53,190 bases of DNA from an uncultured Alphaproteobacteria bacterium. GTDB lineage: Bacteria; Pseudomonadota; Alphaproteobacteria; HIMB59; GCA-002718135. The notes beneath the pieces were generated by a model. The model was not told the DNA's origin. It did no database searches and saw only the letters and a list, made by a program, of their open reading frames with translations. The stretch covers positions 1 through 53,190 of the forward strand of contig CABYTX010000004.1 of the NCBI GenBank assembly GCA_902522015.1, read 5' to 3'. This document shows, piece after piece, positions 14,087-17,308 of the stretch (positions within the stretch are counted from its first letter, which is position 1; each line of letters begins with the position of its first letter). The position numbers were made by a program, and so were the translations under genes.

Positions 14087-14112
14087 AAAAAAAACCGCCC
14101 TAAGGCGGTTTT
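14087..14112 (-). terminator. Rho-independent terminator of glnA
   Basis: Minus strand AAAACCGCC-TTAG-GGCGGTTTT followed by more Ts, just after the glnA stop. Confidence 0.9.
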
Positions 14113-14134
14113 CTTTATAGGGACAAGTATAATT

Positions 14135-15565
14135 CTACACGTCGTAGTATAATTTAAACTCGTGTGGATGAGGTCTAATATTAATAGGATCAACCTCACT
14201 CTCTTTTTTATAGCTAATATAAGTTTCAATTACATCTTTGGTGAATACATCACCCTCTAATAAAAATGCATGATCTTTCTCAAGAGCTTCAAGAGATTCA
14301 GCTAAAGATCCAGGCGTAGATTGAATTTTAGACAAAACTTCATCGCTAGCAGCATAGAGATTTATATCTGTTGGATCACCAGGATTAATTTTATTTTTAA
14401 TTCCATCTAATCCTGCCATTAACATTGCTGAGAATGCTAGGTATGGATTTGCACTTGGATCTGGACATCTAAATTCCATTCTTTTTGCTTTAGGGCTTTG
14501 AGAATAAGCAGGAATTCTAACAGATGCGGTTCTATTTCTTTGAGAGTAAACAATGTTCACCGGAGCCTCAAAGCCTGGGACCAATCTTTTATAAGAATTA
14601 GTAGTAGGAGCACAAAAAGCTAAAAGAGCAGGTGCATGTTTAAGTATACCGCCAATATAATTTAGAGCTAAATCACTTAGGTTAGCATAGTTACCCTCTT
14701 TATACATTAATGTGTCACCGTCTTTCCAAACACTTTGATGAACGTGCATACCTGAACCATTATCTTCGAATAAAGGTTTAGGCATAAATGTAGCAGTCAT
14801 TCCATGTTGTCTAGCAACATTTTTAACAACGTACTTATATTTCATCATATCATCAGCCATCTTCAACAGTGGTGAAAATTCTAAATCAATTTCACATTGT
14901 CCACCTGTTGCAACTTCATGGTGATGTGCTTCAACAGTAAGACCAATGTCTTGCATTGTCATTACCATTTCAGTTCTTACATCTTGAAGTGTATCAACTG
15001 GCGGTAAAGGAAAATAACCTTCTTTATGTCTAGGCTTGTGACCTAAGTTTGGGTTTTCATCAGCACCACTATTCCAAGTACCTTCAACAGAATCAACTTC
15101 GTGAAATGCAAAATTTGATCCTGAGTCAAACTGAACGTTATTAAACACAAAAAATTCTGCTTCTGGACCAAAAAATGCTGTGTCACCGATACCAGATGAT
15201 TTCAAGTAGGCTTCAGCTTTTTTAGCAATATTTCTTGGGTCACGACTATAGTCAACCAAAGTTACAGGATCTTTAATATTACAATGTAATGCCAAAGTTT
15301 TTTCTGAAAAAAAAGGATCAATGTATGCAGTTGTTGCATCTGGCAAAACAATCATATCACTGTCTTGAATTTCTTGGAAACCTCTTACTGAAGATCCATC
15401 AAAACCAAGTCCGTCAGAAAATATATCTTCGTCTAAAAATTTAATTGGTATTGTAAAATGTTGAGTTGTTCCTGGTATATCAGTAAAGCGCATATCAACC
15501 ATTTTAATGTCCATATCTTTAATTTCAGACATTAAATCTTTTGGAGTCGAGCTTTTTAATTTCAT
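14135..15565 (-). CDS. glnA: Glutamine synthetase type I (GSI-beta)
   Basis: [80 protein letters not shown] at 15572-15577. Confidence 0.98.
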
Positions 15566-15581
15566 ATCTATCTCCTTACTT

Positions 15582-15612
15582 CAACAAAAGGGTATGCCAT
15601 CCAGCCTTACCC
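15582..15612 (-). terminator. Candidate riboswitch expression-platform terminator
   Basis: Minus strand GGGTA-aggctggatggca-TACCC then TTTTGTTG, between the aptamers and the glnA RBS. Confidence 0.45.
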
Positions 15613-15650
15613 GGTTAAATCATGCTCTAGTTATGAAATCTGCTTTTGAT

Positions 15651-15706
15651 GCGCGTTCCTTCAGCTAATGGCTTACTTCCGACCTATATATAATAGGTTG
15701 AACGAT
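15651..15706 (-). ncRNA. Glutamine riboswitch aptamer (glnA motif), copy 2
   Basis: AUCGUUC-A-ACCUAU(UAUAU)AUAGGU-CGGAAGUA-AGC(CAUUA)GCU-GAAG-GAACGCGC: P1 CGUUC/GAACG, P2, CGGAAGUA junction, AGUA/GAA E-loop, P3. Confidence 0.92.
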
Positions 15707-15719
15707 TTATAACTTTTGC

Positions 15720-15771
15720 ATGCGTTCCTTCGGCACAATGCCTACTTCCGACTCTAAATGAGTTGAACGAT
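15720..15771 (-). ncRNA. Glutamine riboswitch aptamer (glnA motif), copy 1
   Basis: AUCGUUC-A-ACUC(AUUUA)GAGU-CGGAAGUA-GGCA(UUG)UGCC-GAAG-GAACGCAU: same three-way junction, with compensatory P2/P3 changes relative to copy 2. Confidence 0.92.
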
Positions 15772-15812
15772 TATAGGTTAATTACTAGGTTTTATATAAA
15801 AGTAAAGAAAAA

Positions 15813-16154
15813 TTAGACAGCATCACTGTCTTTTTCACCAGTCCTTATTCTGATTACCTGTTCAATATTTGATACAAAAATCTTACCATCTCCGATTTTT
15901 CCTGAATAAGCGCTAGTTTTTATTGACTCAATAACATCATCTACTTGATTGTCTTCAACGATTACTTCAAGTTTCATTTTTGCTAAAAATTCATCATCAT
16001 ACCCATCATTAGGATCAATTCCACCCGTTGATCCTCTTTGCCTACCAAAACCTTTTACATCTACTAATGTCATCCCAGATATTCCAAGTTCATGTAAAGC
16101 TTCTTTAACTTGAGAAAGTTTAAATGGCTTAATGATCGCTTCTATTTTTTTCAT
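15813..16154 (-). CDS. glnB: Nitrogen regulatory protein PII with atypical T-loop
   Basis: MKKIEAIIKPFKL, VKGFGRQ, SGKIGDGKIFV, IRIRTGE; lies upstream of glnA. Confidence 0.93.
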   Translation of the reverse strand: MKKIEAIIKPFKLSQVKEALHELGISGMTLVDVKGFGRQRGSTGGIDPNDGYDDEFLAKMKLEVIVEDNQVDDVIESIKTSAYSGKIGDGKIFVSNIEQVIRIRTGEKDSDAV

Positions 16155-17308
16155 ATTGTTGATAACCTATTAATTGCTTCTTTAATGTTTTCTAGAGAAT
16201 TAGCAAAACTTATTCTAACAAATTCTCCAGCATTATCTCCAAAGCTGGAGCCTGGGACTAATGCAACACCTTTTTCTTCAAGTGCGATTTCTGAAAATTT
16301 ATTTCCACTCAATCCAGTTTTTGAAATATTGGGAAATGCATAAAAAGCACCGCCCGGTTCAAAACAAGAAATTTTCTCTAATTTATTTAGTTCATTAAAA
16401 ACGTACTCTTTTCTTTTTTGAAATTCACTGACAATTTTTTCTATTTCTTTCTGAGAACCTTTTATTGCTTCTAATCCTGCATATTGCGAAATTGAGGTAG
16501 CGCAGGAATTATAATTGACACATATTTTATTAGCATGTTCAATTAAATTATCTGGCCATATACTCCAGCCTAACCTCCATCCAGTCATACAATATGTTTT
16601 GCTCCATCCTTCAAGAACTATCAATCTATTTTTTATACTTTCGTATTCTAATAATGATGGCATTTGTTCATTATTAAAAATAATATTACTATAAATTTCA
16701 TCACTTAAAATGGAGACGTTTGGATATTGCTCTAATAAATTAACAAGATCAGTAATTTTTTTCTTATTCATATATGATCCTGTAGGGTTGTTTGGATTAT
16801 TTATTATTATCAAACTTGTTTTATCAGAAATTAATTCTTTTAATTGTTCAGTATTAATTTCGAAATTATCTTTTTCTGAAAGCTTTAGTGGTACAGCTTT
16901 TGCACCGCTGTATTTAATCATAGATCTATAAATTGGAAATCCCGGATCAGGAAAAATTATTTCTCTATCCTCACTACCTAATAATAACGCTGAAATAAAA
17001 ATTACAGGCTTACCTCCTGGAGTTATTAAAATATTTTCTGATTTAATATTTGATTTATATTTTTTGAATACTAACTCTGAAATTGATTCTCGTAATTCAG
17101 GTATGCCATTTGATGGAGTATAACCATGATGGCCATCTTTAATTGCTTTAATTGCAGCTTCCTGAATATTGATTGGTGTTGGAAAATCAGGTTGTCCAAT
17201 TCCCAAATTGATAATATCTTTGCCTTTGGCTACTAGATCATTGGCTTTAGCAAGAATAGAGAATGCTGTTTCTGTTTCTAAATTAAATATTCTTTTTGAA
17301 ACTTCCAT
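16151..17308 (-). CDS. PLP-dependent aminotransferase class I/II (aspartate aminotransferase-like)
   Basis: NLGIGQPDF, NNPNNPTG, SDEIY, GWSKTYCMTGWRLGW, GAFYAFP, VRISFA. Confidence 0.92.
   Translation of the reverse strand: MEVSKRIFNLETETAFSILAKANDLVAKGKDIINLGIGQPDFPTPINIQEAAIKAIKDGHHGYTPSNGIPELRESISELVFKKYKSNIKSENILITPGGKPVIFISALLLGSEDREIIFPDPGFPIYRSMIKYSGAKAVPLKLSEKDNFEINTEQLKELISDKTSLIIINNPNNPTGSYMNKKKITDLVNLLEQYPNVSILSDEIYSNIIFNNEQMPSLLEYESIKNRLIVLEGWSKTYCMTGWRLGWSIWPDNLIEHANKICVNYNSCATSISQYAGLEAIKGSQKEIEKIVSEFQKRKEYVFNELNKLEKISCFEPGGAFYAFPNISKTGLSGNKFSEIALEEKGVALVPGSSFGDNAGEFVRISFANSLENIKEAINRLSTI

Follow-up and report, generated by a model that had tools for sequence, protein, structure and literature searches.

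Genes and RNA elements at the locus

We examined a 53,190-nucleotide (nt) stretch of DNA from an uncultured alphaproteobacterium (contig CABYTX010000004.1 of assembly GCA_902522015.1; hereafter, the window). Within it lies a nitrogen-control locus in which an aminotransferase gene, a PII gene in the glnB position, two glutamine riboswitch aptamers, and glnA, encoding a type I glutamine synthetase (GS), follow one another. The genome belongs to a family of streamlined marine Alphaproteobacteria (f1); a sister family (f2) is the sole other family in the order. We find that nitrogen control has been rewired, and that the rewiring is lineage-wide across f1, as seen in gene presence and absence, aptamers, conservation, and complementarity. 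This family has in all likelihood lost the protein cascade for glutamine sensing, in which GlnD acts on PII, and PII on GlnE and GlnK; glutamine is probably read by tandem type-1 riboswitches instead.

The features of the locus are listed in Table 1. Positions are those of the full stretch, and the locus features lie on the minus strand unless otherwise stated. The window has a G+C content of 28.6%, and the assembly it comes from measures 1.03 Mb, with an estimated completeness of 66%.

Table 1. Features of the glnB-glnA locus and its surroundings.
Feature	Positions	Strand	Basis or remark
Aminotransferase, class I, aspartate aminotransferase-like (glutamate:2-oxoacid), 385 amino acids	16151..17308	-	PF00155, 236.7 bits
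PII gene (glnB position), 113 amino acids; T-loop rebuilt at its tip (residues 42-51), which is longer by one residue	15813..16154	-	PF00543
glnB-glnA spacer, 247 nt		-	holds both aptamers
Terminator-like hairpin AGACAGUGAUGCUGUCU and U-rich tail, over the glnB stop codon	15805..15831	-	consensus scan
Candidate glnA promoter: TTTACT (15806-15801), 16-nt spacer, TAATTA (15784-15779)	15779..15806	-	reading of leaders
Glutamine riboswitch aptamer 1	15719..15771	-	RF01739, 61.9 bits
Aptamer 1 tail and linker CAUGC-AAA-AGUUAU-AAAU, 5' strand of proposed helix H	15705..15722	-	RNAfold, RNAalifold
Glutamine riboswitch aptamer 2, nested in proposed helix H	15650..15706	-	RF01739, 64.3 bits
Conserved switching block GAUUUCAUAACUAGAGCAUGA	15620..15640	-	kept in all tandem leaders examined
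Variable-sequence hairpin between block and Shine-Dalgarno site	15580..15619	-	fold of unique leaders
glnA start region: Shine-Dalgarno AAGGAG (15577-15572), UAUGAAAUU (15566-15558)	15558..15577	-	sequence reading
glnA, type I GS, 476 amino acids, Tyr403 kept	14135..15565	-	TIGR00653
Strong intrinsic-terminator-like site after glnA	14084..14119	-	16 pairs, then T run
Two tRNA genes between aminotransferase and tig	17362-17435, 17505-17586	+	same pair beside glnB in f2

Loss of GlnD and GlnE from one of two sister families

A search of the window genome returned a single PII match and two Amt genes. GlnD (TIGR01693), GlnE (PF03710), a second PII, and the sigma-54 DNA-binding domain were not found in this 66% complete genome, as an earlier reading of the window made from the sequence alone had predicted. 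An NtrX-like regulator adjoins a histidine kinase, with a score of 398.8 bits that lies under the 600-bit cut-off. Since absence cannot be proven from a genome of this completeness, we surveyed its relatives. Among the 47 f1 genomes that are at least 80% complete, neither glnD nor glnE was found in any, including the 11 that are at least 90% complete. The predicted loss thus holds across the whole family.

The two families differ sharply among genomes that are at least 85% complete. Here, glnD is present in 0 of 27 f1 genomes and in all 24 f2 genomes, while the RF01739 aptamer is present in 26 of 27 and 0 of 24, respectively. In line with the proposed co-occurrence with glnD loss, nearly every f1 genome thus carries the riboswitch, and none was detected in the glnD-positive f2. 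In the same genomes, PII occurs in 20 of 27 from f1, with one copy each, and in 24 of 24 from f2, with two copies in 20. Across all 116 f1 genomes it occurs in 87, as a single copy every time. In addition, glnE is present in 5 of 5 f2 genomes, adjoining glnA. The f2 pattern (glnB-glnA, glnK-amtB, and glnD) is the same as that of strain HIMB59, which we use purely to compare gene content; SAR11 Ia is without these genes (Smith et al. 2013, PMC3870248).

The synteny of tig, two tRNA genes, glnB, and glnA is common to both families, which makes the f1 PII a positional orthologue of canonical GlnB. An f2 genome assembled as a single contig has a canonical glnB and, 45 nt downstream of it without an intervening aptamer, glnA; glnE lies directly behind glnA on the opposite strand. 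At the f1 locus, an aminotransferase gene has been joined to glnB, the interval from glnB to glnA holds two aptamers, and glnE is gone. The tRNA pair that adjoins glnB in f2 likewise marks this conserved synteny.

The sequence-only reading noted that alphaproteobacterial glnBA is usually under NtrC/sigma-54 control. Neither factor was found in either family: sigma-54 was detected in 0 of 5 genomes drawn from f1 and f2, and no NtrC match reached the cut-off in f1 or f2. The layer that was replaced is therefore the post-translational one of GlnD, GlnE, and GlnK, not an NtrC promoter, and the loss of sigma-54 predates the rewiring.

Three points count against the view that riboswitches have taken over from the protein cascade. 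The contrast between f1 and f2 amounts to a single evolutionary event and cannot be read as a statistical correlation. The relatives surveyed are mostly incomplete metagenome-assembled or single-cell genomes. Finally, a genome of another alphaproteobacterial family (G147) carries a single aptamer yet keeps glnD, so the riboswitch need not always go with glnD loss. It could also be argued that glnD and glnE are present in f1 and were missed through assembly gaps or extreme divergence. The incompleteness of the window genome would allow this, and whole loci can indeed be missing from such assemblies, given that G115 (genus g8) and four genomes of the window's genus gave no glnA match (E 1e-50). 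However, the absence holds in all 47 of the more complete genomes, with those at 90% or above among them, and the same models match glnD in all 24 f2 genomes and glnE in all five f2 genomes searched, which are of similar size and composition. We regard missed genes as a scarcely credible explanation.

Tandem aptamers in a conserved leader

Both aptamers match RF01739 over its full length (model positions 1 to 53 of 53), with scores (Table 1) far above the gathering threshold of 35 bits. The window genome has six glutamine aptamers, which form three tandem pairs, the first upstream of glnA and the others upstream of the two amtB genes. All seven f1 genera examined retain the tandem arrangement before glnA. 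RNAalifold analysis of 21 aligned leaders recovers a three-stem fold (P1, P2, and P3) with compensatory changes at 15 pairs, including pairs in P2 and P3 of aptamer 1, and the columns of the aptamer junctions CGGAAGUA and GAAGGAACG are invariant. By score and fold, the window aptamers probably belong to the type-1 glutamine riboswitch family, and they are predicted to bind glutamine.

One tally of tandem leaders gave 28; a tally that also counted five single-aptamer leaders gave 32 of 37. These 32 leaders precede glnA from seven genera, both amtB genes of the window genome, an ATP-grasp operon, and other genes. All of them have the same order of elements: aptamer 1; a linker of the form GCAUGC-A(2-4)-GUUAU(A/U)AA(A); aptamer 2; a short spacer; a conserved block of 20 nt; a hairpin; the Shine-Dalgarno site; and the AUG. 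The consensus of the block is (A)UUUC(C)AUA(A/G)CUA(1-3 nt)GCAUGA.

The block has three possible partners. The first is the linker, as partner of the 3' part of the block: in 10 of 12 leaders folded with RNAfold, CAUGC...AGUUAU pairs with AUAACU...GCAUG to form a helix (helix H) that encloses aptamer 2, and RNAalifold recovers the CAUGC-GCAUG pairing in 21 of 21 leaders, two of them through an A-U to G-U change. The second is the core of aptamer 2, whose GGAA pairs with UUUC/UUCC of the block in the RNAalifold structure. The third, for the 5' part of the block, is the Shine-Dalgarno site or start codon. In the minimum free energy (MFE) fold of the window leader including the coding start, GAUUUCAUA of the block pairs with UAUGAAAUU and covers the start codon. 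The match varies with the block type: UUUCAUA matches UAUGAAA at the start codon of glnA in six genera, whereas UUUCCAUA matches UAUGGAG(G) at the Shine-Dalgarno site in both amtB leaders, a g6 leader, and g3 glnA. The duplex predicted for g3 glnA reaches −11.8 kcal/mol, and 0 of 200 shuffled sequences did as well. This conserved platform suggests translational control.

The AUG within GCAUGA (positions 15620 to 15625), which is invariant in all tandem leaders, was also considered as the start of an upstream open reading frame. The frames that follow it span 2 to 20 codons, are unconserved, and have no Shine-Dalgarno site, which makes a leader peptide the less likely reading. We read the invariant AUG as part of a base-pairing helix rather than as coding.

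Every one of the 24 unique leaders has a hairpin between the block and the ribosome site, at −8 to −16 kcal/mol and with unrelated sequences. The sequence-only reading had described two aptamers and a terminator-like hairpin between glnB and glnA. Both aptamers and the hairpin are real, but the terminator character finds little support: none of the 24 unique leaders has as many as 5 U in the 8-nt tail that follows the outer stem, and a terminator scan made no call on the hairpin. Transcription attenuation, with this hairpin acting as a glutamine-dependent intrinsic terminator, would draw on the inner stem of the window hairpin (GGGUA/UACCC), which is followed by UUUUGUU, and on U-rich tails in three relatives (L013, L112, and L109). 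Beyond the lack of U-tails and of a scan call, RNA contigs run through the hairpin into glnA, spanning leader and coding sequence in one piece. Furthermore, no fixed anti-terminator pairing is visible, as the hairpin varies freely while the aptamers do not. Attenuation is therefore quite unlikely, and the hairpin fits better as a spacer by which the block is brought close to the ribosome site.

Direction of the switch

On balance, we consider it probable that the tandem leaders are OFF switches, a direction that we infer from the pairing partners of the block. Bound glutamine would lock the aptamer cores, the freed 5' part of the block would cover the ribosome site, and the synthesis of GS and Amt would fall at high glutamine. 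The tandem riboswitches are located in the 5' leaders of glnA, the two amtB genes, and the ATP-grasp operon; a third Amt paralogue is preceded by a single aptamer.

The opposite sign has a mechanism of its own. As for cyanobacterial gifB, glutamine could stabilize P1 and helix H, so that the block is tied up, the ribosome site is free, and GS and Amt rise. Helix H directly adjoins P1 of aptamer 1, and in 10 of 12 leaders the MFE fold includes it while leaving the ribosome site open. The sole tested type-1 glutamine riboswitch turns expression on (Klahn et al. 2018, PMC6212724). Weinberg 2010 interprets earlier data as down-regulation under nitrogen depletion. Such a switch, however, would place glutamine synthesis and ammonium uptake under positive feedback, which is physiologically implausible, and Klahn 2018 (PMC6212724) deems negative regulation “reasonable.” Constrained folding of seven glnA leaders points the same way: forcing aptamer 2 to fold excludes the extended helix H and gives the start region an unpaired fraction of 0.28 to 0.44, compared with 0.59 to 0.76 when only aptamer 1 is forced. 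An ON switch thus appears rather unlikely.

The OFF direction nevertheless has several points against it, beginning with the tested ON case itself. Helix H is nearly invariant, its few differences being confined to internal loops, and covariation therefore cannot prove it. The duplexes between block and start region are weak, at −6 to −12 kcal/mol, and shuffled sequences match them in 0 to 27% of trials. Finally, in constrained folding, the state with both aptamers bound is about equal to the free state.

Transcription units

The sequence-only reading treated the locus as one minus-strand unit. We find instead that the region is likely to comprise two. The first would be the frame-overlapping aminotransferase-glnB pair, ending at the hairpin over the glnB stop codon; the second would be glnA, transcribed from a separate promoter with a ~207-nt leader.

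The hairpin called over the glnB stop codon (positions 15831 to 15815) consists of AGACAGTGATGCTGTCT, with AATTTTTCTT behind it, and has seven pairs, three of them G-C. Its sequence is little changed among the 19 loci printed, with loop changes in two and 3'-arm changes in one. It uses GAC or GGC codons, which we take, without a count, to be uncommon at 28.6% G+C. The hairpin is probably the end of the aminotransferase-glnB transcript. A −35-like CTTTAC(T/A) box follows 8 nt after the PII stop codon in all PII-bearing leaders, with a TAATTA-like hexamer 16 nt further on. A similar T-rich stretch with a CTTTAT box lies ahead of aptamer 1 in genera without the aminotransferase-PII pair. Weighing against this candidate glnA promoter, the consensus scan did not call it, since its second hexamer is without the final T.

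Metatranscriptome contigs from four datasets of four studies were placed on the region; these comprise RNA runs only and were chosen by this stretch. One contig (X4) covers positions 15063 to 15772, which includes the entire leader and part of glnA. A contig from another study (X7) shares the end at 15772, a position that lies seven bases past the −10-like hexamer and one short of aptamer 1. This shared end is a weak hint of a transcript start at about 15772, because contigs cannot prove ends. Summed word depth is far higher on glnA and its leader than on glnB and the aminotransferase (X1, X2, and X7), but contig depth cannot rank genes, and we draw nothing from it; cross-species pile-up is likely on glnA, given its 97 to 100% identity across species.

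A single operon, with the riboswitch inside a polycistronic mRNA, remains the competing arrangement. Only 41 nt separate the PII stop codon from aptamer 1, and low-depth contigs bridge aptamer 1 into glnB (X1 record 5, 15744 to 16225; X7 record 27, 15744 to 16013). These bridging contigs are weak evidence, however, because RNA libraries can hold DNA. The terminator-like hairpin over the glnB stop codon, the similar upstream stretch in genera that lack the pair, and the two contigs from two studies that end at the same base all speak against one operon, which we judge unlikely.

A PII protein with a rebuilt T-loop tip

The f1 PII is a full-length Pfam PII domain (PF00543; 115 bits versus a cut-off of 25), but it falls below the NCBIfam equivalog cut-offs for both GlnB (131 versus 202) and GlnK (128.8 versus 181). 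Its T-loop had been called unrecognizable. The tip has certainly been replaced, reading GSTGGIDPNDGYDDEF in the window's genus (g1) against the fully canonical GHTELYRGAEYVVDF in the glnB of the single-contig f2 genome. The base of the loop, GFGRQRG, is kept, as is the tyrosine, which becomes Tyr52 through the insertion of one residue. Thus, the loop is remodeled at its tip, not unrecognizable, and by its alignment the core of the protein is strongly constrained.

The tip is different in every f1 genus: it reads GQDEGLKNNLDYDDEF in g6, GEDGLDNNLDYHDEF in g2, GKGITNDQQDYSDDF in g7, and GQEGLDKDQDFDDEF in g4. In the window, the loop reads GGIDPNDGY and keeps just the final tyrosine of Y-[KR]-G-[AS]-[AE]-Y, which we take to be the PROSITE uridylylation-context pattern. 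Missing from f1 PII are E44, Y46, and R47 of the canonical protein, the last presumably being the residue that GlnK inserts into AmtB. The T-loop tyrosine is kept in 18 of 19 f1 loci and in 111 of 113 PII sequences (the full-length ones among the best 120 database clusters). In one genus, Phe takes its place.

Variation is concentrated in the tip. Among these 113 sequences, positions 42 to 51 have an entropy of 1.09 bits, compared with 0.28 bits for the remainder, in agreement with the prediction that PII had been freed to drift. Elsewhere, YDDEF is nearly invariant, and an alignment with f2 GlnB and GlnK shows no variation within or between the two families in the T-loop base GFGRQ(R)G, the B-loop GKIGDGK, or RIRTGE. 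Also invariant are G27, T29, G35, G37, R38, Q39, K59, G88-K91, R102, and R104, which we understand to be nucleotide- and 2-oxoglutarate-binding residues. PII thus probably persists as a GlnD-independent sensor with the residues of its ATP/2-oxoglutarate site intact, and its rebuilt tip would no longer be held by contacts with GlnD, GlnE, and AmtB.

Alternatively, PII could be a leftover that no longer signals and is heading for loss, with the loop change as neutral decay. The hypervariable tip, the genus with Phe in place of the tyrosine, and the two genera (g3 and g5) that have the glnA locus without the aminotransferase-PII pair would suit such a history. Neutral decay is hard to reconcile with the low entropy outside the tip, with the invariance of the presumed ligand-site residues and the near-invariant YDDEF, or with a reading frame that is intact and free of stops in every match listed across f1 genomes. 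We consider this outcome very unlikely.

Apparent losses of PII in four genomes of genus g1 (G069, G082, G083, and G097) and in G115 were set aside; these genomes gave no glnA match either (E 1e-50) and are probably cases of assembly gaps. A scan of genome contigs for PII listed 80 loci, which are mostly canonical PII and include one near relative (L025); it supplied the named glnB-glnA loci for the GlnA tree described below.

The glutamine synthetase and its adenylylation loop

GlnA matches TIGR00653 at 665.4 bits, against a cut-off of 429. A tree of 75 GlnA sequences separates 55 mainstream alphaproteobacterial sequences from a second clade (Shimodaira-Hasegawa-like approximate likelihood ratio test, 100). 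This second clade comprises nine f1 sequences, one from f2, eight scattered alphaproteobacterial sequences, and sequences from Desulfatitalea and Deferrimicrobiaceae. Grouping f1 and f2 GlnA together is not rejected (approximately unbiased test, P = 0.746), and the constrained tree is likelier. The best solved relatives are 4xyc/2bvc/1hto at 645 bits and 3ng0 at 640 bits, compared with 562 bits for 1f1h/2gls; we take these to be from Mycobacterium tuberculosis, Synechocystis, and Salmonella/Escherichia coli, respectively.

The description of this GlnA as non-alphaproteobacterial is borne out insofar as its clade stands apart from the mainstream sequences. It does not belong to the rewiring, because f2, which keeps GlnD and GlnE, has the same GlnA type in the same genomic position. 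The non-mainstream GlnA is a trait of the whole order and predates the rewiring.

The adenylylation loop is another matter. It reads DKNLYDLPPEE in f2 and most others and is degenerate in the GlnA of the window, which keeps Tyr403; the altered context noted from the sequence alone is therefore confirmed. Degenerate variants, such as DKNLYELSDKE, are confined to f1 in the loop alignment, and the tyrosine is kept throughout. With the NLYDLPPEE context lost and GlnE found in 0 of 47 genomes, f1 GlnA does not fit the definition of an adenylylation-regulated GSI-beta enzyme.

Conservation of the GlnA protein across species is unusually strong. When the window is compared with L015 to L025, GlnA is 97 to 100% identical, the aminotransferase 74 to 97%, and PII 88 to 99%.

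The same GlnA type also occurs beyond the order. In eight scattered alphaproteobacterial genomes (L121 to L128; G296, G145, G489, G317, G276, G287, G431, and G301), GlnA is 63 to 65% identical to that of the window, and no glutamine aptamer was found within ~1.5 kb on either side of glnA. Four of the eight (G296, G276, G301, and G431) have two GlnA matches. In L124 (G317:C11), from a 1.1-Mb genome, Phe replaces the adenylylation tyrosine (GDLFSMTARQL), and this genome still encodes GlnD (672 bits).

The aminotransferase joined to glnB

The best NCBIfam match of the aminotransferase is an aspartate aminotransferase, at 335 bits and below the cut-off of 550; among solved structures, it comes closest to the aspartate/aromatic aminotransferases 1gd9 and 1dju (254 bits). 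An enzyme of this type should therefore interconvert glutamate and 2-oxoglutarate.

Its stop codon overlaps the PII start codon by 4 nt (ATGA, positions 16151 to 16154). This overlap is kept in 16 of 19 f1 loci, with a gap of 3 to 9 nt in the other three, which upholds the observation that no intergenic promoter space precedes glnB. The tRNA genes leave only ~53 nt for a promoter of the aminotransferase-glnB pair.

Orthologues with 68 to 95% identity adjoin PII in five f1 genera. None was found in f2, g3, or g8, where the best matches are paralogues with 35 to 37% identity, and genus g5 carries a copy with 56% identity at another genomic site. Both g3 and g5 lack the aminotransferase and PII at the glnA locus and keep the tandem aptamers. 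Homologues with 42 to 48% identity lie 190 to 270 nt upstream of glnB at five other alphaproteobacterial loci, including one from a SAR116 single-cell genome. Because of these, the aminotransferase-glnB neighborhood is older than f1, and the tight joining alone is specific to f1. A predicted complex of three PII subunits and one aminotransferase scored 0.00; it gives no verdict and is used neither way.

Other genes and lineages with the glutamine aptamer

In a genome of the window's genus (L105; G079:C3:119000-125000), tandem aptamers at positions 935 to 1056 precede an operon that encodes a circularly permuted ATP-grasp protein (PF14403), an Alpha-E protein (PF04168), and a transglutaminase-like protein (PF01841). 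In L158 (G147:C4), from the unrelated family that keeps glnD, a single aptamer at positions 2508 to 2558 precedes ATP-grasp and Alpha-E genes. This suggests a glutamine-linked role for the poorly understood ATP-grasp/Alpha-E operon. G147 is the only one of 150 other alphaproteobacterial genomes, sampled as one genome per family, in which RF01739 was detected.

A divergent third Amt (PF00909, 210 bits) follows a single aptamer in L159 (G069:C1:13500-17520; open reading frame 2538 to 3821, minus strand). Five relatives (L159, L146, L147, L151, and L153) have such a single aptamer before a third Amt, in a leader without the conserved block. This arrangement was not seen in the incomplete genome of the window.

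Implications

Glutamine riboswitches linked to glnA had so far been known from marine metagenomes alone; our results place them in one alphaproteobacterial family that is both defined and abundant. They also provide a case in which the PII T-loop has changed after its classical partners were gone. More broadly, they illustrate one route by which, as genomes are streamlined, short RNAs may take the place of a post-translational cascade of several proteins.

A fuller scenario is doubtful at present. In it, the nested two-aptamer RNA shuts translation, while PII reads 2-oxoglutarate and uses an acidic T-loop to act on a new direct target, either the aminotransferase or GS. If this were true, the glutamine and 2-oxoglutarate signals would be split between an RNA sensor and PII, and the leaders would contain the first OFF-type glutamine riboswitch. 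The PII target would be the upstream, frame-overlapping aminotransferase, which makes and consumes 2-oxoglutarate, or GS itself, with PII acting in place of GlnE.

Comparison with known nitrogen-control systems

Earlier papers already describe tandem glutamine aptamers in marine metagenomes and their association with glnA, amt, and PII genes (Weinberg 2010; Sherlock 2022, PMC9481103), and SAR86 has also been reported with RF01739. Type-1 glutamine riboswitches upstream of glnA in marine metagenomes are likewise described in Klahn 2018 (PMC6212724), where their taxonomy and the effect of glutamine were then open. We did not find in print, supplements being outside the search, an assignment of these aptamers to f1, the contrast between f1 and f2, the remodeled PII, or the common expression platform. 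The main text of Getz 2023 does not contain the terms “glnB,” “PII,” “riboswitch,” or “glutamine.” Its supplementary pangenome tables may bear on the question, as may the supplementary metagenome tables of Klahn 2018, which were outside the search.

The system of f1 has several features in common with that of Cyanobacteria, in which RF01739 is present, glutamine is read by RNA, and PII operates without GlnD, sensing 2-oxoglutarate and ATP (Klahn et al. 2018, PMC6212724). The f1 GS is also nearer to 3ng0 than to 1f1h/2gls. In Cyanobacteria, however, the aptamer lies on gifB, the gene for a GS-inactivating factor, whereas the f1 aptamers are tandem, lie directly on glnA and amt in an alphaproteobacterial host, and have the opposite expected sign (OFF).

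SAR11 Ia is likewise streamlined, marine, and without glnD and ntrBC, and RNA elements have been suspected before its amt genes (Smith et al. 2013, PMC3870248). It also resembles the window genome in the retention of an NtrY/NtrX-like pair. The nitrogen response of SAR11 Ia is PII-independent, whereas f1 keeps one PII gene and has a defined glutamine aptamer.

Among tandem (“pseudo-cooperative”) riboswitches, Sherlock et al. 2022 (PMC9481103) counts 157 glutamine doublets and 4 triplets, and files the doublets as separate riboswitches with separate platforms. The f1 aptamers, in contrast, appear to share one platform in which a long-range helix encloses aptamer 2, a layout nearer to the one-platform arrangement listed there for glycine riboswitches (Table 1 of that paper).

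Finally, compared with the canonical GlnD-GlnB/GlnK-GlnE cascade, f1 keeps the ancestral positions of glnB and glnA, the PII core, and the GS tyrosine. GlnD, GlnE, GlnK, NtrC, and sigma-54 were not found in the f1 searches, and both loop contexts are degenerate. The sister family is still canonical-like, with GlnD, GlnB, GlnK, and GlnE present. The two families thus form a natural before-and-after pair, with the GlnD/GlnB/GlnK/GlnE cascade on one side and RNA sensors with a single altered PII on the other.

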